In this document: positions 1,134 to 60,927 of the stretch, one piece after another | Numbering within the stretch: the stretch's first letter is position 1 | Layout: every line of letters begins with the position of its first letter | Assembly: GCA_965217775.1 (NCBI GenBank) | Contig: CBDCJH010000002.1 | Location: forward strand, 4,672,001-4,736,000 | DNA: 64,000 nucleotides | Source: Acidobacteriota bacterium | Lineage (GTDB): Bacteria; Acidobacteriota; UBA6911; RPQK01; JAJDTT01 | Direction of reading: 5' to 3' | Notes under the pieces: model-generated | Seen by the model: only the letters and a program-made list of their open reading frames with translations | Databases searched by the model: none | Told to the model about the DNA's origin: nothing | Position numbers and translations under genes: made by a program

Positions 1134-1162
1134 GGAGTTCGGCGGTTGGAAACCGCCGCTCC
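1134..1162 (-). repeat. REP-like hairpin GGAGCGGCGGTTTCCAACCGCCGAACTCC
   Basis: 29 bp identical to 11675-11703 and 32313-32341; starts immediately after gspK TAG. Confidence 0.85.
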
Positions 1163-2167
1163 CTATAGTTCCGTGTTCGCTTCATTCCAGTACAGGACAG
1201 CATACTGCTTGATTCCGACTCCGATCCGGATCACGGCGTTGATGCGGCCGATCACCTCCGATCCGGACAGCCGTCCGGTGCTGATCAGGTTGTAGACGTT
1301 GGATCGCAGGGTCGAAAGATAGGAGGCCGTGTCCGTGGGCAGGCCGGGGATCTGGGTCAATGCGGTGTTCACGTCGCCCAGGGGGAACTGGCGGCGCATT
1401 TCGTCGATGACCAGCGCCGTCTCGTAGGTCAGCCCCGGGATGGCGGCCAGGACCGGGACCGGCGCCGAGTTGACGTTGATCCGGTTCACGCTGCTGAAGA
1501 CGGTGAGGTACTTTCCCAGCCCGAAGTACTCGACCCGTTCGCCGTCGGGCGTGAGGCCCTTTTGGCCGTAGTAGATCTCGGGCGTCACCCCCCGCACCAG
1601 AAGCAGCTCTTCGGGGACGTCGAAGGGGCCGTTCTTGGCGAAGTAGGGCTGCGGGAGGGAGAGATAGTAGTCGCTCTCGGCCCCGTTGGGCCGGAAGAAT
1701 TCGTCGGGGTCCCTCCAGTCCTCGATGGAATCGGTGAGCATGTCGGCGTCGCCGGGCTCCATTCCCACCGTGATCAGAAGATTGTAGATCAGGTGCGAAG
1801 GGGCCGTGTTCAGGTTGATCTTCCCGGTCTCGTCCACCACCTCCACGTCGGCGAAATCGGCTCCCAACTGCAAGGTGACGGCTCCGGTCATGACTTCGGG
1901 GACCGAACCCGGACCCATTTCCATGCGCTGTTGGCTCTTGGCGAAGGCCATCTGGGATTCGATGATCCGATAGACGGCGTAGTCGATTCCGGCCCGGGCC
2001 AGGTAGTGCGCCCGCTTCTGGTCCACCAGGTTGCGGGTGGCGTCGATTTCGGTGCGGATGGCCGCGCCGAAGCTCAGCGCCAAGAGTCCCAGGGCCAGCA
2101 TCACCCAGAGGACGATGATGAGGACCGCGCCCCGGTCGCCGTCACCAGTGCTCGATCGGTTCCTCAT
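1163..2167 (-). CDS. gspK: Type II secretion minor pseudopilin GspK
   Basis: RG-AVLIIVLWV prepilin-like N-terminus, DETGKINLNTA, DWRDPD, ELLLVRG, RINVNSAP motifs. Confidence 0.92.
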   Translation of the reverse strand: MRNRSSTGDGDRGAVLIIVLWVMLALGLLALSFGAAIRTEIDATRNLVDQKRAHYLARAGIDYAVYRIIESQMAFAKSQQRMEMGPGSVPEVMTGAVTLQLGADFADVEVVDETGKINLNTAPSHLIYNLLITVGMEPGDADMLTDSIEDWRDPDEFFRPNGAESDYYLSLPQPYFAKNGPFDVPEELLLVRGVTPEIYYGQKGLTPDGERVEYFGLGKYLTVFSSVNRINVNSAPVPVLAAIPGLTYETALVIDEMRRQFPLGDVNTALTQIPGLPTDTASYLSTLRSNVYNLISTGRLSGSEVIGRINAVIRIGVGIKQYAVLYWNEANTEL

Positions 2168-2892
2168 TTGCGATCCCCCGCGGTTCCATATACCCGGCTC
2201 GACCTTCCCCGCCGTCCGATGAAGCTGGCGTTGACGGAGGCGAAGACCTCCCCTCTGTTATGAACGATGCGGATGGCCCGAGGCACGGACTGCATTTCCT
2301 CTCCCAGCCATTCCGGGAACCAGGCGAACACCTTCTGACGGGGGTCGTACCCGTAGTACTGGAACTCCAGCGCGGTGATGTCCCGGATCAGGGGCAGCGG
2401 CTTTCCGTCCGGGATCCGGACCATGGTATTGAAGCTGTCCAGGCCCACGAACTGGGCCTCCATGGAGCCCATGTAGGGATCTCCGTACTCGTCCTCGGCC
2501 AGACCATAGCGGACCACGGTCAATCCGGGCGTCCGATGCATGACCAACGGCGCCACGGTGATAAAGGTGACCGAATCGGGGGTGCCGAAGAAGAGGGGCG
2601 TCTGAAAGCGGGTGGGAGGCTCCACCGGGCCCAACCCGGTCCGGTCCGGCGGGGCCACCGGGCGCAGGGGGTAGAGGGACGCGACCTGGCGCTTGACCTG
2701 ATCTCCGAGGATTCTCTCGGCCGCCTCCTCCTCCAGCCGGGTCTGGCTCTTCTGGTAGCTGTTGAGGGCCAGGCGAAAGGAGGAGAAGACGATGCCGGCC
2801 ACCAGTCCCAGGATGGTGAAGGCGACGACCAGTTCAATCAGGGTGAAGCCGGAGTCGGGCCTCACTTTGTTCGACGAAATTCCAAATTCCAA
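2164..2892 (-). CDS. gspJ: Minor pseudopilin GspJ-like (start may be GTG ~2865)
   Basis: G|FTLIELVVA N-methylation motif, C-terminal PRAIRI, position in cluster. Confidence 0.8.
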   Translation of the reverse strand: MEFGISSNKVRPDSGFTLIELVVAFTILGLVAGIVFSSFRLALNSYQKSQTRLEEEAAERILGDQVKRQVASLYPLRPVAPPDRTGLGPVEPPTRFQTPLFFGTPDSVTFITVAPLVMHRTPGLTVVRYGLAEDEYGDPYMGSMEAQFVGLDSFNTMVRIPDGKPLPLIRDITALEFQYYGYDPRQKVFAWFPEWLGEEMQSVPRAIRIVHNRGEVFASVNASFIGRRGRSSRVYGTAGDRK

Positions 2893-2924
2893 AACTCAAT
2901 TCCCAAACGCATTCCAGATTCCAA
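2877..2924 (+). repeat. Degenerate heptamer (AAATTCC-like) tandem tract
   Basis: AAATTCC AAATTCC ... CAATTCC ... CATTCCAGATTCC; AT-rich relative to flanks; similar tract at ~10033-10051. Confidence 0.55.
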
Positions 2925-2935
2925 CTGCGAGATTT

Positions 2936-3457
2936 CTATCTCCCGCCTCCGCGCAGGATCCTTTCCATCTCGCTCTGACGCCCTCCCCGGTTCGCCGGGG
3001 CGGCGTGGGGATCGGCGACCAGCTTGAGGCACCGGGTGGTGTAGAACTTGCCGTGGGGATCGTTCTTGTAGCGCACCCGGACCTCCAGCAGAAGCAGGTT
3101 CACCGGCGGGACGGCGATCTCCAGGGAGAGGCCCTGCCGGGGCGGTTCCCAGAAATCCACCGTGGCCGCGTAGTCGAACTCGTCGTCCAGATTCCCGTCC
3201 AATTGGATTGGGCCCACCAAGTCCTCGTCGCTGAGAAGCCGGTTCATGACATTCTCGGCATGTCCCATGGCGCGATGGGCCAGGTCGATCCGCCTGACGT
3301 TCTTCAGGCCTCCCGAGAAGGTCTGCATGGTGACGGCGACGCCCAAGCCCAGGATGGAGACCGCGACCAGGACCTCGAGGAGGGTGAAGCCCGCATGGGA
3401 GCGGCGGCGTGGAGCGGCGGCTTTCTTGCCGCCGAACGCGGAGCGTCCTTCCTTCAC
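2936..3457 (-). CDS. gspI: Minor pseudopilin GspI-like
   Basis: G|FTLLEVLVAV motif; GTG start at 3457 overlapping gspH TGA (GTGA). Confidence 0.8.
   Translation of the reverse strand: MKEGRSAFGGKKAAAPRRRSHAGFTLLEVLVAVSILGLGVAVTMQTFSGGLKNVRRIDLAHRAMGHAENVMNRLLSDEDLVGPIQLDGNLDDEFDYAATVDFWEPPRQGLSLEIAVPPVNLLLLEVRVRYKNDPHGKFYTTRCLKLVADPHAAPANRGGRQSEMERILRGGGR
3411..3433 (+). repeat. REP-like hairpin GGAGCGGCGGCTTTCTTGCCGCC inside gspI leader
   Basis: Identical to the reconstituted target of intron copy 1. Confidence 0.85.
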
Positions 3458-3963
3458 TTCGGTCTCCCTTGGGATTCGAGGATGGGCGACACCTTGGCCA
3501 GGCCGGTGACGGCGTCGGCCTTGACGTAGAGGCGTTTCTCCTGGCGGTTGACCAGTCCGATGGCGCCGCCGGAGCTGCGGCCATTGGAGTAGAAGTTGAC
3601 CCTCCACGGAAGCGGTGTGTCGTCGATGGTCTGGGGCACGATTCCGTCCGGCAGGTCCACGCTGCCGATCTCCTCTCCGAACTCGTTGGCCAGGACGTAG
3701 TAGCCCGCCCCCGTGTCGTCGCGGGTCACGATGATGCGGCGGACGGTGTGGCGTCCGATGGCTTCGAAACGGGCCCGCTTCATGCGCGTCGCCAGATCCC
3801 GGCAGGCGGCCTCGAGCTCCAGGCCCTGGAGGCCGGAGGTGAAGGAGGGCAGGATCAGCATGGTGGCCAGGCCCATGATGATCAGGAGGACCATGAGCTC
3901 GACCAGGGTGAAGCCGGTTTGGTTGTTCGATTTGACTCGCGTCATGTCAGGTTTCACGAGCAT
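3454..3963 (-). CDS. gspH: Minor pseudopilin GspH/FimT-like
   Basis: G|FTLVELMV motif; FYSNGRSSGG and DAVTG C-terminal motifs; start could be 3945. Confidence 0.85.
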   Translation of the reverse strand: MLVKPDMTRVKSNNQTGFTLVELMVLLIIMGLATMLILPSFTSGLQGLELEAACRDLATRMKRARFEAIGRHTVRRIIVTRDDTGAGYYVLANEFGEEIGSVDLPDGIVPQTIDDTPLPWRVNFYSNGRSSGGAIGLVNRQEKRLYVKADAVTGLAKVSPILESQGRPK

Positions 3964-3989
3964 GGTGGCGGGGAGGTCGGCGGCAAGAA

Positions 3990-5906
3990 GTCACGGTAGG
4001 AACGGCAGTTTCCTGCCGCCCCCCGCACAGATCCGGACGTGCCCGTTAAGGCATCCGGCTCCTACCTTGGGTGTGGACGGCCAGCGGAACCGCTGCCCCG
4101 GCCACGGGTGACGGATCTTCACGGATGGCCAGAGCAATTCCGTCATCCGTCGCAACCGTCCCCAGCTGAAGCGGTCGCGTTGGGACCGGCGGCGCAAGGC
4201 TCGCAGCCACCGCCGTTGCAGCAGATAGCAGAAACCTCGCAGCCAGCGCGTACTCCCCGGAACCGCAAAATAGTTCAGCCAGCCGTTCAGGACCCGGCTC
4301 AACCATTTCCCGACCTCCCAGTGATCCGCGTGCCGTTGTCTCCACAGCCTCTCCCCCAACCGTTGCAGGGTCCGGTTCATCCGTTTCGCGCTTGGCTTCC
4401 GCCCCAGCCGGAAGCGTCCCTTCCGGGTCTTCGCACAGTAGTGCGTGAACCCCAGAAAGTCGAACGTCTCCGGTTTCCGCTCCCCGCGTCGTCGCCGATC
4501 CGCTGCCGCAAATCGTCCGAACTCCACCAGTCGCGTCTTTTCCGGGTGCAGTTCCAGCCCGAACTCGGCGCACCGTTCCCCCAGGTCTCGGAGAAACCGT
4601 TTCGCGTCCGCCCGTCTCTGGAATCCGGCCACGAAGTCGTCCGCATATCGCACCAGGATCGCTTCGCCTTTCGGGACTCGTGGGCGCCACGTCCGATGGA
4701 ACCATTGGTCCAGCACGTAGTGCAGGTACACGTTGGCCATGACCGGCGAGACGTTGGCGCCCTGAGGCGTCCCTCTCCCCGTGTCCGACCAGGTCCCTTC
4801 TTCCATCACGCCGGCGTTCAGCCACTTGCGCAGCAGCCGCAGCACCCGCCGGTCTCCGATCCGCCGTTCCACGAACTGCATCAGGCAGTCCCGGTCGATC
4901 GCATCAAAGAACGTCCGAATGTCCGCGTCCACGATCCAGTTGACTTTCCGCCGTTCGATCCCGTAGGCCAGTGCATCCAGCGCGTCATGCGCCTTCCGTC
5001 CGGGCCGGAACCCGTAGCTGAGCCCGAGAAACTCCGCCTCGTAAATCGGCGTCAGGAGCTCGTCCACGACTGCCTTCTGGAGGATCTTGTCCTCCAGCGC
5101 GGCCACGCCGAGCGGTCGTGTCCTTCCATCCGGCTTGGGGATGTTCACCCGCCGGACGGGAGGCGCTCGGTACGCGCCCCGGTGCACGCGGCGATGCAGG
5201 TCCAGCAGTCGCTCTTCCAGCTTCGCCCCGTACTCCTCCCACCGGACCCCGTCGATTCCCGGCGCAGCATCCTTCCTCAGTCCGAGGTAGGCGCGGCGCA
5301 GGGCCTCCACAGTGATATGGTGCAGCAGCGCGGTCAGTCGCTCCTTGGGGTTTCTCGCGATCGCTCGCCGTATCCGGTCCACCGCTTGGGACACGCTCCC
5401 CCGACTCTGCGTCCGGCGCGTGCTTTGGCTCACCGAATTCCCCTTGGTTCCATCCCTTCGCTCCACCGGCTCCGCCGAGGGTCGCCCCTCTTTGTTCGCC
5501 CGCTTCATCGCTACTATGGATGAATCCGATTGCTTCGTTCCGTCCATCATGAGTTTCGGGTTACTCCTTTCTCATGCGACCCCGGGGCGACCCCCCGGCG
5601 TGAAATGAAGCCCTCCCAGGTCCCGGAACAAGATTTGCGTACGTGCCTGGGTTCTTTGACACCGCGGAGCCCGGCCGTCCCTCACCTGGGCGGTCCAGCC
5701 GGTGTTGCCTTCGACCGCGACTACAGTCTCGGCACTTCCGATCATGGAGCTTTCGATGCTCAATAGCCTGCCCATACGCACCGCTACCGACGCTTCGCCG
5801 ACACCCTCACGGGTGCCAACGCACGGCTCGCGGAGAAACGTGGATGGTTAGTCCTTCGTTTCGGCGGACTTCCACCGCCTATCTTGTGCCAGTTAGCCTG
5901 GCGCAC
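3990..5906 (-). mobile_element. Group II intron copy 1 (1917 bp, IIB-like, probably bacterial class E)
   Basis: 5' GTGCG at 5906, 3' ...CCTACCGTGAC at 3990; domain V AGGAGCCGGATGCC-TTAAC-GGGCACGTCCGGATCT (4063-4029); identity with copy 2 ends at these boundaries. Confidence 0.95.
3991..5550 (-). CDS. ltrA: Group II intron reverse transcriptase/maturase (no endonuclease domain)
   Basis: APGIDG, IPKPDGRTRPLG, SYGFRPGR, GTPQG, RYADDF, FDFLGF, maturase GWLNYF. Confidence 0.97.
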   Translation of the reverse strand: MMDGTKQSDSSIVAMKRANKEGRPSAEPVERRDGTKGNSVSQSTRRTQSRGSVSQAVDRIRRAIARNPKERLTALLHHITVEALRRAYLGLRKDAAPGIDGVRWEEYGAKLEERLLDLHRRVHRGAYRAPPVRRVNIPKPDGRTRPLGVAALEDKILQKAVVDELLTPIYEAEFLGLSYGFRPGRKAHDALDALAYGIERRKVNWIVDADIRTFFDAIDRDCLMQFVERRIGDRRVLRLLRKWLNAGVMEEGTWSDTGRGTPQGANVSPVMANVYLHYVLDQWFHRTWRPRVPKGEAILVRYADDFVAGFQRRADAKRFLRDLGERCAEFGLELHPEKTRLVEFGRFAAADRRRRGERKPETFDFLGFTHYCAKTRKGRFRLGRKPSAKRMNRTLQRLGERLWRQRHADHWEVGKWLSRVLNGWLNYFAVPGSTRWLRGFCYLLQRRWLRALRRRSQRDRFSWGRLRRMTELLWPSVKIRHPWPGQRFRWPSTPKVGAGCLNGHVRICAGGGRKLPFLP

Positions 5907-5920
5907 AGCCGCCGCTCCCC

Positions 5921-6376
5921 CTACCAGGAGGCCACGTCGGCGCTGTCGGATTCGCCTCCTTCCACGCCGTCGGCGCCCCAGCTCCAGAGGTCGTAGTCGC
6001 CGTACTGTCCCGGGGCGCGGTACTGGTACTCACGGCCCCAGGGGTCGTTGGGCAGGGTCCGCTTGTCCAGGTAGGGACCGCTCCAGTTGTGGAGCCCGGC
6101 GTTTTCCAACAAGCTGGTGAGCCCCTCCGCCGTGTTGGGGTAGCGGCCCACGTCGAAACGAAAAAGACCCAGGGCTCCTTCGAACTGGTCGATCTGGAGC
6201 TTGGCGATCTCGCTCTTTCCCCGGCCCAGGCGTTCCATCACCTTGGGACCCACCACCGTGGCCAGAAGTCCCAGGATCACCAGCACCACGATGAGCTCGA
6301 TCAGGGAAAACCCTCGATCGCGTTTCCTTTCCTCCGTTTCCACGGCCTTGGCGGCCTTGTCGACTGTCCTGCTCAC
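5921..6376 (-). CDS. gspG: Major pseudopilin GspG
   Basis: G|FSLIELIVV, GRYPNTAEGL, DPWGREYQY, GADGVEGG. Confidence 0.95.
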   Translation of the reverse strand: MSRTVDKAAKAVETEERKRDRGFSLIELIVVLVILGLLATVVGPKVMERLGRGKSEIAKLQIDQFEGALGLFRFDVGRYPNTAEGLTSLLENAGLHNWSGPYLDKRTLPNDPWGREYQYRAPGQYGDYDLWSWGADGVEGGESDSADVASW

Positions 6377-12956: not shown

Positions 12957-13123
12957 GGAGCGGCGACTTTCTTGTCGCCGAGCAGGGGGGCAGGGGGGAC
13001 GGAGTCCCCACTTCACACTTTCCCCCCTCTACACGTTCCGGCCACCGAATCGCTTAGCGGCATGGAAGAGCAGGCGGCAAGAAAGCCGCCTGTCCCAGTG
13101 GGCGACAAGAAAGTCGCCCCTCC
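12957..13123. repeat. REPIN-like element (inverted REP doublet with conserved spacer) plus extra REP
   Basis: 12957-13095 homologous to 21194-21318+23236-23247 and 38167-38304; additional REP 13101-13123. Confidence 0.88.
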
Positions 13124-21168: not shown

Positions 21169-21318
21169 GGAGCGGCGGTTTCCAGCCGCCGAAGGAGCGG
21201 CGGTTTCTAGCCGCCGATCAGGGGGGCAGGGGGGACGGAGTCCCCACTGTACACTTTCCCCCTCAATACTTTCCGGTCACCGAATCGCGTAGCAAGATAG
21301 AAGAGCAGGCGACAAGAA
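21169..21318. repeat. REP cluster and REPIN-like element (left part, interrupted by intron copy 2)
   Basis: Two tandem GGAGCGGCGGTTTCYAGCCGCC, conserved spacer, then half REP GGCGACAAGAA. Confidence 0.85.
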
Positions 21319-23235
21319 GTCACGGTAGGAACGGCAGTTTCCTGCCGCCCCCCGCACAGATCCGGACGTGCCCGTTAAGGCATCCGGCTCCTACCTTGGG
21401 TGTGGACGGCCAGCGGAACCGCTGCCCCGGCCACGGGTGACGGATCTTCACGGATGGCCAGAGCAATTCCGTCATCCGTCGCAACCGTCCCCAGCTGAAG
21501 CGGTCGCGTTGGGACCGGCGGCGCAAGGCTCGCAGCCACCGCCGTTGCAGCAGATAGCAGAAACCTCGCAGCCAGCGCGTACTCCCCGGAACCGCAAAAT
21601 AGTTCAGCCAGCCGTTCAGGACCCGGCTCAACCATTTCCCGACCTCCCAGTGATCCGCGTGCCGTTGTCTCCACAGCCTCTCCCCCAACCGTTGCAGGGT
21701 CCGGTTCATCCGTTTCGCGCTTGGCTTCCGCCCCAGCCGGAAGCGTCCCTTCCGGGTCTTCGCACAGTAGTGCGTGAACCCCAGAAAGTCGAACGTCTCC
21801 GGTTTCCGCTCCCCGCGTCGTCGCCGATCCGCTGCCGCAAATCGTCCGAACTCCACCAGTCGCGTCTTTTCCGGGTGCAGTTCCAGCCCGAACTCGGCGC
21901 ACCGTTCCCCCAGGTCTCGGAGAAACCGTTTCGCGTCCGCCCGTCTCTGGAATCCGGCCACGAAGTCGTCCGCATATCGCACCAGGATCGCTTCGCCTTT
22001 CGGGACTCGTGGGCGCCACGTCCGATGGAACCATTGGTCCAGCACGTAGTGCAGGTACACGTTGGCCATGACCGGCGAGACGTTGGCGCCCTGAGGCGTC
22101 CCTCTCCCCGTGTCCGACCAGGTCCCTTCTTCCATCACGCCGGCGTTCAGCCACTTGCGCAGCAGCCGCAGCACCCGCCGGTCTCCGATCCGCCGTTCCA
22201 CGAACTGCATCAGGCAGTCCCGGTCGATCGCATCAAAGAACGTCCGAATGTCCGCGTCCACGATCCAGTTGACTTTCCGCCGTTCGATCCCGTAGGCCAG
22301 TGCATCCAGCGCGTCATGCGCCTTCCGTCCGGGCCGGAACCCGTAGCTGAGCCCGAGAAACTCCGCCTCGTAAATCGGCGTCAGGAGCTCGTCCACGACT
22401 GCCTTCTGGAGGATCTTGTCCTCCAGCGCGGCCACGCCGAGCGGTCGTGTCCTTCCATCCGGCTTGGGGATGTTCACCCGCCGGACGGGAGGCGCTCGGT
22501 ACGCGCCCCGGTGCACGCGGCGATGCAGGTCCAGCAGTCGCTCTTCCAGCTTCGCCCCGTACTCCTCCCACCGGACCCCGTCGATTCCCGGCGCAGCATC
22601 CTTCCTCAGTCCGAGGTAGGCGCGGCGCAGGGCCTCCACAGTGATATGGTGCAGCAGCGCGGTCAGTCGCTCCTTGGGGTTTCTCGCGATCGCTCGCCGT
22701 ATCCGGTCCACCGCTTGGGACACGCTCCCCCGACTCTGCGTCCGGCGCGTGCTTTGGCTCACCGAATTCCCCTTGGTTCCATCCCTTCGCTCCACCGGCT
22801 CCGCCGAGGGTCGCCCCTCTTTGTTCGCCCGCTTCATCGCTACTATGGATGAATCCGATTGCTTCGTTCCGTCCATCATGAGTTTCGGGTTACTCCTTTC
22901 TCATGCGACCCCGGGGCGACCCCCCGGCGTGAAATGAAGCCCTCCCAGGTCCCGGAACAAGATTTGCGTACGTGCCTGGGTTCTTTGACACCGCGGAGCC
23001 CGGCCGTCCCTCACCTGGGCGGTCCAGCCGGTGTTGCCTTCGACCGCGACTACAGTCTCGGCACTTCCGATCATGGAGCTTTCGATGCTCAATAGCCTGC
23101 CCATACGCACCGCTACCGACGCTTCGCCGACACCCTCACGGGTGCCAACGCACGGCTCGCGGAGAAACGTGGATGGTTAGTCCTTCGTTTCGGCGGACTT
23201 CCACCGCCTATCTTGTGCCAGTTAGCCTGGCGCAC
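21319..23235 (-). mobile_element. Group II intron copy 2 (1917 bp)
   Basis: Same termini and identical internal ORF translations as copy 1 (offset 17329). Confidence 0.95.
21320..22879 (-). CDS. ltrA: Group II intron reverse transcriptase/maturase
   Basis: Identical 519-aa protein to 3991-5550. Confidence 0.97.
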   Translation of the reverse strand: MMDGTKQSDSSIVAMKRANKEGRPSAEPVERRDGTKGNSVSQSTRRTQSRGSVSQAVDRIRRAIARNPKERLTALLHHITVEALRRAYLGLRKDAAPGIDGVRWEEYGAKLEERLLDLHRRVHRGAYRAPPVRRVNIPKPDGRTRPLGVAALEDKILQKAVVDELLTPIYEAEFLGLSYGFRPGRKAHDALDALAYGIERRKVNWIVDADIRTFFDAIDRDCLMQFVERRIGDRRVLRLLRKWLNAGVMEEGTWSDTGRGTPQGANVSPVMANVYLHYVLDQWFHRTWRPRVPKGEAILVRYADDFVAGFQRRADAKRFLRDLGERCAEFGLELHPEKTRLVEFGRFAAADRRRRGERKPETFDFLGFTHYCAKTRKGRFRLGRKPSAKRMNRTLQRLGERLWRQRHADHWEVGKWLSRVLNGWLNYFAVPGSTRWLRGFCYLLQRRWLRALRRRSQRDRFSWGRLRRMTELLWPSVKIRHPWPGQRFRWPSTPKVGAGCLNGHVRICAGGGRKLPFLP

Positions 23236-24411
23236 AGTCGCCTCTCCCAGTGGGCGACTGGAAATCGCCCCTCCGGGCGATTGGAAATTGCCCGTCCCGC
23301 AGACTTCCCGGATCATGCGGCGATAGATCTCCACCGCTGCTTCGAGTTGCTCGATGGAGATCCACTCTCCCACCGTGTGGGCCTGGGCGATGTTGCCGGG
23401 ACCCAGGACCACCAATTCGTCGACCTGGTCCTTGATCCAGATGGAGTCGGTACCGTAGGGGACGGTCTTGGGCTTCCGTCCGCCGCCGGCCCGGGATGCC
23501 AGTTGCACCAGGTCGGCATCGGGAGGAACGTAGAAAGGACCCTTGTACGCGGTCTCCACCTCCAGGCCGTGGGCTCTGGCCCTGCCGGCGACGATCTCCA
23601 TCAGTTCCCGGCTCTGGTCGCCGGGCATGGGCCGGAAGCCGACTTGGCAGGTGCACCTGGCCGCGCTCACGTTGGGGCGGGTGCCGCCGTCCTCGAAGAC
23701 CATGTTGAAACCGTTGGTGGGCGGATCGAAGTCCGGGTTCCGGTAGCGGGGATCCTTTTTCACATCCTTGGCCAGCTCAGCCATCTCGGCCAGGAAAGGA
23801 GCGATCAGAAAATTGGCCGAGGTGCCGAGATCGGTGCTGGTGTGGGCCGCTCTGCCCCGGGCCGTGGCCATGACCAGGACTCCGCCCTTGTGGGCATAGA
23901 CCGGCCACAACTCGGTAGGCTCGGCCACTACAGCGTAGGTCGGCCGTGCTTCGTTGAAGAACCGGGACTCCCGGACCACCTGCTTGGCCCCGCCCCCGCC
24001 CACTTCCTCGTCGGCGGTGGCCATGACCAGGACCGGATGCTTCAGGTCCCCTGAGTCCACCGTCGCGGCCGCAGCCATGGTGGCCGCCAGAGGTCCCTTC
24101 ATGTCGCAGGATCCCCTTCCGGAAATCTTTCCGTCCCCGGCCACCGGGTCGTAGGGGTCCCAGTCCTCTTCCTGTCCCGGCACCGTGTCGGTGTGGGAGA
24201 AGAAGGCCAACCCCCCCGTTCCCGATCCCTTCCGGCCGACGATGCTGACCTTGGTCTCCCCGTTTTCGTCCACGTAGTCGAGGCGCTCGGTTTCGAAGCC
24301 GTGCTCTCGAAACCGCTCCTCCACCAGGTCGGAGATCAGAGCGTTGCTCCAGCGGCTGACGGATTTGATGGCGACGAGATCCCGGGTCAGGGAAACAGGG
24401 TCGAGTTGCAT
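23113..24411 (-). CDS. argE: M20 family deacylase (acetylornithine deacetylase ArgE-like); 3' end runs through REPs into the intron
   Basis: SHTDTVP, GRGSCDMKG, DEEVG, AEPT, AHTVGEWI motifs. Confidence 0.8.
   Translation of the reverse strand: MQLDPVSLTRDLVAIKSVSRWSNALISDLVEERFREHGFETERLDYVDENGETKVSIVGRKGSGTGGLAFFSHTDTVPGQEEDWDPYDPVAGDGKISGRGSCDMKGPLAATMAAAATVDSGDLKHPVLVMATADEEVGGGGAKQVVRESRFFNEARPTYAVVAEPTELWPVYAHKGGVLVMATARGRAAHTSTDLGTSANFLIAPFLAEMAELAKDVKKDPRYRNPDFDPPTNGFNMVFEDGGTRPNVSAARCTCQVGFRPMPGDQSRELMEIVAGRARAHGLEVETAYKGPFYVPPDADLVQLASRAGGGRKPKTVPYGTDSIWIKDQVDELVVLGPGNIAQAHTVGEWISIEQLEAAVEIYRRMIREVCGTGNFQSPGGAISSRPLGEATVRQANWHKIGGGSPPKRRTNHPRFSASRALAPVRVSAKRR
23236..23293 (-). repeat. 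Remainder of interrupted REP plus two more REP hairpins, within the argE-like ORF
   Basis: AGTCGCCTCTCC, GGGCGACTGGAAATCGCCCCTCC, GGGCGATTGGAAATTGCCC. Confidence 0.8.
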
Positions 24412-60844: not shown

Positions 60845-60927
60845 GGGGGACTGGCGTCCCCCCTGACCCCCCCTAATCGGCGACAAGAAAGTCGCCGCTC
60901 CATGGCGACAAGAAAATTGCGGCTCCA
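60845..60927 (-). repeat. Perfect REP (60879-60901) with partial REPIN spacer and a degenerate REP
   Basis: Minus strand GGAGCGGCGACTTTCTTGTCGCCGATTAGGGGGGTCAGGGGGGAC. Confidence 0.8.

Follow-up and report, generated by a model that had tools for sequence, protein, structure and literature searches.

The 64,000-nt stretch of DNA analyzed here (the window, G000:C2:4672001-4736000), which belongs to an Acidobacteriota genome of 6.43 Mb with 62% G+C (G000), contains two copies of a group II intron, and it is highly probable that this is a mobile, endonuclease-less class E intron whose natural homing site is a genus-specific family of hairpins that resemble repetitive extragenic palindromes (REPs). 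Both copies were located on the minus strand, where a previous sequence-only reading of the window had placed them: copy 1 spans positions 3990-5906 (1917 nt) between the genes for a type II secretion system (T2SS) protein G and a pseudopilin, and copy 2 spans positions 21319-23235, 3' of an M20 peptidase's open reading frame (ORF), within the hairpin that terminates a ~140-nt composite repeat. The two copies are 100% identical across 1917 nt, and each gives a match of 166.7 bits to the Rfam family RF02005 (group-II-D1D4-6; gathering score 49). The matching core of ribozyme domain 1 (D1) is at 5650-5872 (copy 2: 22979-23201), and domains 5 and 6 (D5, D6) of copy 1 together occupy 3990-4063, with D5 at 4028-4061 and, as judged by eye, the bulged A of D6 at 3997, 7 nt from the 3' splice site. 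The conserved ends of group II introns (GUGYG and AY) are present as a GTGCG start and a GAC end in all ten full-length copies of the genome. The intron-encoded protein (IEP) has 519 aa (minus strand, 3991-5550; copy 2: 21320-22879) and comprises reverse transcriptase (RT) and maturase regions; its frame crosses D5 and D6, and the stop lies 1 nt before the intron end. It scores 355 bits with TIGR04416 (group II RT/maturase, cut-off 300) and E = 5e-35 with RVT_1, its sole Pfam match, and neither an HNH nor any other nuclease family was detected in Pfam or NCBIfam at E <= 0.01. The IEP frame is intact in nine of the ten full-length copies of the genome, while copy 2725575 is frameshifted by a 1-nt deletion.

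Removal of the intron rejoins, at both window copies, exactly the exon sequence that had been predicted, and in both cases the TTTCTT loop is indeed cut behind its first T. In copy 1, the 5' exon half-site (5907-5918, minus strand) consists of GGAG, a spacer, the 5' hairpin arm and the first loop T, which together represent the intron-binding sites IBS2 and IBS1, and the 3' exon half-site (3979-3989, minus strand) consists of the remaining loop and the 3' hairpin arm; the corresponding half-sites of copy 2 are at 23236-23247 and 21308-21318, likewise on the minus strand. As single-stranded DNA, the rejoined site has a 7-bp stem and a 6-nt loop (TTTCTT). The boundaries 5906/3990 stand, as the orthologous T2SS-G/pseudopilin spacer of the sister genome G006 is an empty site with an uninterrupted hairpin, and as an intron-less joint (window position 3989 to the 5' exon) is found, in a slightly different allele, in contigs of two of the four public runs, all of which provide contigs.

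What do the insertion sites have in common? At the level of Pfam, the genes around the two window copies agree with those given before: it identifies the T2SS protein G and the pseudopilin at copy 1, which is inserted into their 35-nt spacer, and the M20 peptidase at copy 2. Genome-wide, the ten full-length copies are 98.8-100% identical, three of them at unrelated loci are 100% identical to each other and the remaining ones differ by 9 to 22 nt; in addition, the genome has an internally deleted copy, a 5' fragment of 67 nt and four ORF-less elements (640-755 nt). When the flanks of all full-length copies are inspected, the expectation that they rebuild GGAGNGGCGRCT^TTCTTGYCGCC holds exactly for seven of the ten and fails for three. 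For two of these three, the rebuilt sequence is nevertheless a variant hairpin that belongs to the family: in one case it has GGAC and the loop TTCCTG, in the other the arm pair GGCGATT/TCCAGTCGCC. An insertion into non-REP sequence was found once (C2:3929720-3931636, L003; weighed below), yet this copy obeys the base-pairing rule described further on. With nine of ten full-length copies at the same position of one family's hairpins and in otherwise unrelated flanks, the repeat itself can be regarded as the shared target, in agreement with the sequence-only reading. In the sister genome G002, nine of ten copies are in hairpins, the tenth being a 5'-truncated copy of which only the 3' arm is kept, and in G005 and G006 most ORF-less copies occupy the same hairpin position.

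The hairpin family is scattered through the window as stated before, with ~20 members there. Genome-wide counts are 109 for the strict hairpin and 73 for the full 23-nt pattern (empty exact sites), as compared to 0 for a reversed control pattern. Unoccupied exact-pattern hairpins of the window are found on the plus strand at 3411-3433 and 12957-12979, the latter being the left end of a composite repeat, and on the minus strand at 13101-13123 and 60879-60901; next to 13101-13123, a hairpin at 13073-13095 (minus strand) has GGAC in place of GGAG. The upstream GGAG is kept, position by position, in 84-98 of the 106 hairpins on C2, and the loop varies within the family (ATCCTT 11 times, TTCCTA 10 times, and others). 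The predicted DNA folds of two window hairpins have -8.6 kcal/mol with z-scores of -2.85 and -2.71, whereas a third one has -11.3 kcal/mol but a z-score of only -1.47, and is thus less distinct from shuffled sequences. Members also form tandem arrays with a period of ~28 nt. Only 14% of this family, and 18% of a second family described below, lie inside a coding mask that contains 69% of random positions, the mask being a crude one that is based on third-position G+C (GC3). As the sites are extragenic, it is plausible that they are mostly neutral landing pads, as had been proposed. The exact pattern is present in seven of eight sister genomes of the genus, with 10 to 134 copies, G005 being the one with 0 copies, and it was found in none of six genomes of a sister genus; the hairpin family is genus-specific.

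Could this association be merely historical, in the sense that an old burst of insertions reached a young repeat family, and that the copies are now immobile relics which have been spread by duplication of the repeat? Occupancy is certainly low, with 7 full-length copies versus 73 empty exact sites in G000, one of the ten IEPs is frameshifted, and full-length introns are absent from G003, G006 and G007 despite their 97 to 134 empty exact sites, with G003 (97 sites) having intron fragments only. We nevertheless regard such a relic scenario as improbable. The three copies at unrelated loci that are identical over 1917 nt, the identity of at least 98.8% of all others and the nine intact frames would not be expected of old relics, and one of the identical copies interrupts an ORF in frame. 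Moreover, orthologous sites in sister genomes are empty, and the flanks are unrelated beyond the repeat. Low occupancy also has a precedent in other bacterial introns, for which it is described by the selection-driven extinction model (PMC3522654; this and the other papers cited here are drawn on from excerpts), and the low and patchy occupancy observed here resembles the extinction-recolonization picture that has been developed in that paper for enterobacterial introns. G005, which has no exact sites, contains only retargeted forms of the intron.

The target appears to be read by base-pairing with three guide segments of the intron RNA, the exon-binding sites EBS1, EBS2 and EBS3. EBS2 (GCUCC, intron nt 157-161; minus strand, 5746-5750, copy 2: 23075-23079) pairs with positions -12 to -8 of the 5' exon (GGAGC), and some 25 nt downstream of it EBS1 (AGUCGC, intron nt 185-190; minus strand, 5717-5722, copy 2: 23046-23051) pairs with positions -6 to -1 (GCGRCU). 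According to the Rfam alignment, EBS1 is in a terminal loop of D1, and its U can pair with A or, as a wobble, with G at position -3. A candidate for EBS3 is the A at intron nt 250 (minus strand, 5657; copy 2: 22986), which would pair with the first base of the 3' exon (T): in three types within the genus and in three distant relatives, an A, G or U at this position goes with a T, C or A, respectively, as the +1 base. By eye-based counts, 39 of 43 copies have all six EBS1 positions paired with their own target by Watson-Crick or G-U pairs, and the other four have five of six. For EBS2, pairing is seen in 37 of 38 copies with the CUCC:GGAG core, in four of four with CCUAC:GUAGG and in the single case of CAUGC:GCAUG. 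The pairings suggest that the intron RNA reads only 13 positions, -12 to +1 (5' flank, 5' arm and first loop base), and neither the palindrome as such nor the 3' arm.

This code has been re-tuned several times. Eight EBS1 types match their own arms (AGUCGC, AGUCCC, AAUCGC, AACCCC, GGAUGC, GGGUGC and GGUCGC, with AGUCCC having arisen in both clades of the tree described below). AGUCCC is found at GGGACU arms in one full-length copy of G002 and in six ORF-less copies of G005, AAUCGC at GCGAUU-type arms, and AACCCC at GGGGUU. In G004 (OZ242374.1), a variant intron that is 89% identical has EBS1 GGAUGC and EBS2 CAUGC together with a changed EBS3, and it is inserted at GCAUG..GCAUCU. As its three copies (L059-L061, intron at 1145-3056 of the locus) have identical flanks and are located only a few bases upstream of a tyrosine-recombinase (phage-integrase-family) gene, the home of this variant is another multicopy mobile element. 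A sub-clade of ORF-less introns has EBS2 CCUAC, EBS1 GGGUGC or GGUCGC and a matching EBS3, and sits at the same relative position in the second hairpin family (GUAGGGGCRCCC-CUUGU-GGGYGCCC in the RNA alphabet). That second REP-like family, GTAGGGGCRCCC-CTTGT-GGGYGCCC, has 118-132 sites in the genome (e.g. C2 867902, 983382 and 2455451), is often followed by TCTTCGGTCC and looks terminator-like.

As the 3' hairpin arm and EBS1 are both complementary to IBS1, they resemble each other, and this raises the question of whether the repeat family might be a by-product of the intron, either as exon scars or as hairpins that were spread by the intron machinery; the 3' end of the intron together with the first exon base also mimics IBS1 by eye. 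We consider this origin of the repeats hardly credible. The hairpins are about tenfold more numerous than the introns, they exist in tandem arrays and as ends of the ~140-nt composite repeat, and they are abundant where only intron fragments occur (97 exact sites in G003). Furthermore, the copying of exons to new sites is no known group II mechanism.

The copies are not randomly oriented with respect to replication. The minimum of the cumulative GC skew places the origin at about 5.0 Mb, with the terminus at about 1.69 Mb, and dnaA is at 5.011 Mb. The intron sense strand is the leading-strand sequence, which corresponds to insertion into the lagging-strand template, in ten of ten full-length copies and in five of the six other elements, whereas 33 of the empty exact sites have the same orientation and 39 the opposite one (binomial p = 0.0004, Fisher p = 0.001). 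In three sister genomes that are closed, the copies change strand at dnaA (10 of 10 in G002, 7 of 7 in G006 and 11 of 12 in G005), when the terminus is assumed to be opposite of dnaA. Such a bias for the lagging-strand template is known from the nuclease-less intron RmInt1 (PMC8914252, PMC5894124), and it suggests a fork-coupled priming.

We therefore propose the following mechanism for this endonuclease-less class E intron. EBS2 would pair with GGAGC upstream of the hairpin, EBS1 with the 5' arm together with the first loop base, and EBS3 with the next loop T, and as a consequence, reverse splicing would always hit the loop one base after its start. As a part of the repeat, the 3' arm would simply be carried along without being read by the RNA. 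As the protein has no nuclease, priming is expected to depend on the fork: most likely, the intron reverse-splices into the lagging-strand template at the replication fork, with the nascent lagging strand serving as primer, as for RmInt1. The ORF-less introns of 643 nt, which keep the ribozyme and the target rule, presumably borrow the IEP in trans, and single-base changes in EBS1, EBS2 and EBS3 would give rise to sub-lineages on variant arms, in the second hairpin family, and in one genome at an integrase-bearing element.

It is a different matter whether the hairpin structure itself contributes to target recognition. As in class C (IIC) introns, the ribonucleoprotein could recognize the folded DNA hairpin on the single-stranded lagging template, with the hairpin being required and the pairing serving only for fine-tuning. 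In favor of this, every sub-lineage uses the junction of the 5' arm and the loop despite differing arms and EBS1 sequences, even in the family with the CTTGT loop, all copies are on the strand that is expected to be single-stranded at the fork, and class E fragments have been reported beside attC-like stem-loops (PMC7923331). However, a folded hairpin would compete with EBS1, which needs an unpaired 5' arm, and the 100%-identical copy at C2:3929720 has no 3' arm at all; the G004 lineage and copy L104 of G005 likewise lack such a hairpin. Distant RF02005 relatives reside outside of GC hairpins, and only about half of the ten sites have, by eye, an upstream hairpin such as IIC introns use. Since the second family differs from the first by only a few bases in the recognized part, descent suffices to account for the shared position, and a step-wise retargeting in the course of descent is the simplest explanation for the constancy of the arm/loop position. 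On balance, a structure-guided targeting of this kind appears unlikely, and we prefer the recognition of the repeat by base-pairing.

The ORF-less elements deserve attention in their own right. In a tree of 43 copies, based on the first ~550 nt of each, a full-length clade (22 rows) is separated from an ORF-less one (21 rows), and both are supported at 100/100; because they form this separate clade, the ORF-less elements are an old lineage and not fresh deletions. The typical element has 643 nt and a predicted fold with a z-score of -4.9. G006 has seven ORF-less copies and no full-length intron was found in this genome, and G005 has about eleven ORF-less copies and one full-length copy.

With some hesitation, the proposed reading can be extended further, to a class E intron that has specialized on REPs and co-diversifies with its landing pads. 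Autonomous introns and the long-lived ORF-less clade would then constitute a bacterial counterpart of the pairs formed by long and short interspersed nuclear elements (LINE/SINE), and both would track REP sub-families throughout the genus by single-base EBS changes. The hairpin would be functionally needed, being extruded on the lagging-strand template and presenting the arm/loop junction, which would amount to a structure-assisted, fork-coupled targeting in a non-IIC intron, and the split host stem-loop would re-form only in the spliced RNA. We can offer this far-reaching version only as a tentative possibility, and some doubt about it is appropriate.

Several observations weigh against the interpretation as a mobile class E intron with REP-like homing sites. 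The support for splicing and mobility is indirect and consists of identical copies at unrelated loci, empty orthologous sites and the presence of intron sequence in RNA libraries; the intron-less contig from an RNA library is no proof of splicing because it stems from a different allele. The summed contig depth in these libraries, which is far higher for the ribozyme than for the flanks, is no measure of expression, and uncovered parts are likewise not informative. The D5-D6 region scores 37.5 bits with RF00029 and is thereby just below the gathering score of 40, and D5 (intron nt 1846-1879) has a G-A at the position of the catalytic triad where most introns have G-U. This G-A is common to all relatives inspected (L064, L069, L071 and L120), in which the terminal loop of D5 has 5 nt by eye, a length that is expected of class E in place of a GNRA loop, whereas the loop can be drawn with 4 or 6 nt here. 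The above EBS/IBS pair counts were made by eye and without a shuffle control. The copy at C2:3929720, which does not differ from the window copies, retains the 5' half-site only, and its 3' exon provides neither a 3' arm nor a hairpin; this is compatible with the proposed code, which does not extend to the 3' arm. The copy interrupts an apparent coding frame in sense direction and in frame, according to a crude ORF call; it is likely a recent ectopic insertion, and the host gene would depend on splicing. Three or four of the ORF-less copies of G005 have an imperfect hairpin or none. The strand bias is confounded with gene orientation, as most copies are co-oriented with the upstream gene, for which the crude GC3-based ORF call gives a rough hint; by the same crude call, at least one copy (5305087) is apparently antisense to both neighbors. 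The ORF-less copies 4405417 and 4406623 (G000:C2:4405417-4407265) are only 1206 bp apart and have a common downstream flank, and they probably result from a tandem segmental duplication rather than from two homing events. Finally, the class E label depends on equating a match on the plasmid pRmeGR4b with an intron named in a publication, and not on a reference phylogeny.

As to this class assignment, the only RF02005 match (145 bits) on the S. meliloti GR4 plasmid pRmeGR4b adjoins a disrupted IEP, which shares 55% identity with the present one across 309 aa; a second, intact IEP of the plasmid does not adjoin the RF02005 match. The plasmid is described to carry a disrupted class E intron, which represents a compact IIB-like lineage (PMC5894124), and class E introns are IIB-like, small (450-700 nt without ORF) and endonuclease-less (PMC3753933). 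The intron analyzed here shares such features, with its 643-nt ORF-less form, EBS1 and EBS2 in D1 and the absence of an endonuclease domain, and these similarities point to class E (IIE). The earlier label "IIB-type" is acceptable, since EBS1 and EBS2 are both present and since RF02005 and the 55% IEP identity are shared with the pRmeGR4b intron. Class C is ruled out by the co-varying EBS2, the 6-nt EBS1 and the insertion inside the loop. A classification by solved structures was rejected: the best matches in the PDB are IIC RTs, but EBS2 and the Rfam family speak against IIC, and the PDB matches include no representative of class D, E or F. Distant RF02005 relatives are not in GC hairpins, and hairpin homing is for this reason a trait of the lineage in this genus.

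One of these relatives is encoded on the Klebsiella pneumoniae plasmid NZ_MF510424.1 (L120, 52086-56627), with an RF02005 match of 187 bits and an IEP that is 52.6% identical, upstream of umuD. Its rejoined site looks like a palindromic CTG-N-CAG operator, which would be SOS-box-like in view of the LexA consensus, and the intron may split the umuDC operator. It is probably the intron Se.ma.I1/Kl.pn.I5 of a table in PMC6764390; the class of Kl.pn.I5 is not given in the excerpts of PMC3522654 or PMC6764390.

Is "REP" the appropriate name for the hairpins? The short palindrome, the high copy number with arrays and the extragenic location speak for the label, and the missing part is a unit of REPs with their REP-associated tyrosine transposase (RAYT). 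Three Y1_Tnp matches in the genome are weak (39, 31 and 22 bits), and no clear inverted hairpin pair, as in a REPtron or RAYT-REP unit, is present around these three loci. As the RAYT-REP unit could not be shown, "REP-like" is the right word. A 233-aa ORF with a Y1-transposase (HUH) motif (G000:C2:5635244-5635945; L117 1141-1842) has a family-type hairpin ~85 nt upstream, and its product is a candidate for the mover of the hairpins. The composite repeat of ~140 nt, of which there are about 28 copies in the genome (window 12957-13123; G000:C2:1162662-1162800), has family hairpins at its ends; from one end to the other, it consists of a family hairpin, a G-rich stretch with a GGGGAC..GTCCCC hairpin, a conserved core of ~60 nt, and one or two inverted family hairpins. 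It has no match in Rfam at the gathering score, and it may be a BIME-like element, a MITE or a small RNA.

Two further observations concern the window copies and their relatives. The frame of the M20 peptidase (23236-24411, minus strand) has no stop before the hairpin array and the intron and reads through two hairpins, and the same gene in G006 has a stop directly after the conserved end; here, the frame would end 13 codons into the 3' exon if the intron is spliced, and inside the intron at 23113 if it is not. In the RNA-library runs X6 and X8, compared with window positions 3600-6300, two contigs join the 3' end of variant introns head-to-tail to the intron 5' end and have a T in place of the expected final intron C, and such contigs are not in the deep run X1; the joint could be due to a circular intron RNA, to tandem DNA copies or to an assembly artifact.

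What does this system add to the understanding of group II introns? In bacteria, these introns are thought to survive in sites of low harm, namely in other mobile elements or behind terminators, and introns that home into insertion sequence (IS) elements are exemplified by RmInt1, RmInt2 and E.c.I4. An abundant extragenic palindromic repeat would be a third refuge. In the full-text literature that was searched, with subscription papers and supplementary files outside the scope, there was no description of a REP family as a group II homing site beyond one table entry, according to which a group II intron of P. putida KT2440 is REP-associated in two of nine copies (PMC1525189). The targeting code receives unusually clean natural evidence from three guide segments that co-vary in about eight lineages, and the strand rule that is expected of nuclease-less introns is directly visible in ten of ten copies versus a background of 33:39. 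There is a natural series of retargeted ribozymes with matching targets in the poorly studied class IIE, for which only in-vitro splicing is described in the excerpts. The system would be tractable for the question of whether a DNA hairpin helps or hinders reverse splicing, for the persistence of ORF-less introns, and for the mutual shaping of two selfish layers, the repeat and the retroelement, in little-known sponge- or soil-type Acidobacteriota. One selfish element appears to live on another, and the guide sequences of its relatives are re-tuned to variant repeats.

A comparison with known systems helps to define the specific aspects. REPs are also used as specific and mostly harmless sites by IS elements such as ISPpu9, ISPpu10, ISPa11, IS1397 and ISPsy8 (PMC1525189), but these are DNA transposons with a protein-based recognition of REPs. 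The IIC introns are similar in being compact and endonuclease-less and in using intergenic DNA hairpins with many possible sites per genome. They differ in the absence of EBS2, the short IBS1 of 3-4 nt and the insertion downstream of a hairpin that is recognized by its structure (PMC3753933, PMC3522654), whereas a co-varying EBS2, a 6-nt EBS1 and an insertion inside the loop are found here, with the 5' arm as IBS1. The relatives S.me.I4 (pRmeGR4b) and the Klebsiella plasmid intron share RF02005, the frame that extends to the 3' end of the intron and the G-A in the D5 triad, but they exist in single or few copies and are not in GC-rich repeat hairpins. Ribozyme-only derivatives beside autonomous copies are known from the trans-mobilized ORF-less introns of Thermosynechococcus and archaea (PMC4424553), with the Thermosynechococcus case being covered in a meeting report (PMC2936281). 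Unlike these, the ORF-less introns here form a separate genus-wide clade, and in G006 seven copies persist where no cognate full-length intron was found.

The closest parallels are RmInt1 and RmInt2 of S. meliloti, which belong to class D (IIB3). They likewise have an endonuclease-less IEP and read the target by EBS1, EBS2 and EBS3, they home into multicopy selfish sites (ISRm2011-2 and the inverted repeats of ISRm17), they prefer the lagging-strand template, and related introns have been retargeted by EBS changes (PMC5894124, PMC8914252). The differences are the class, D in their case and E here, and the nature of the landing pads, which are IS elements in S. meliloti and a 23-nt extragenic palindrome with about 70 to 130 sites per genome in this genus, as well as the large ORF-less sister clade that here uses the same pads.

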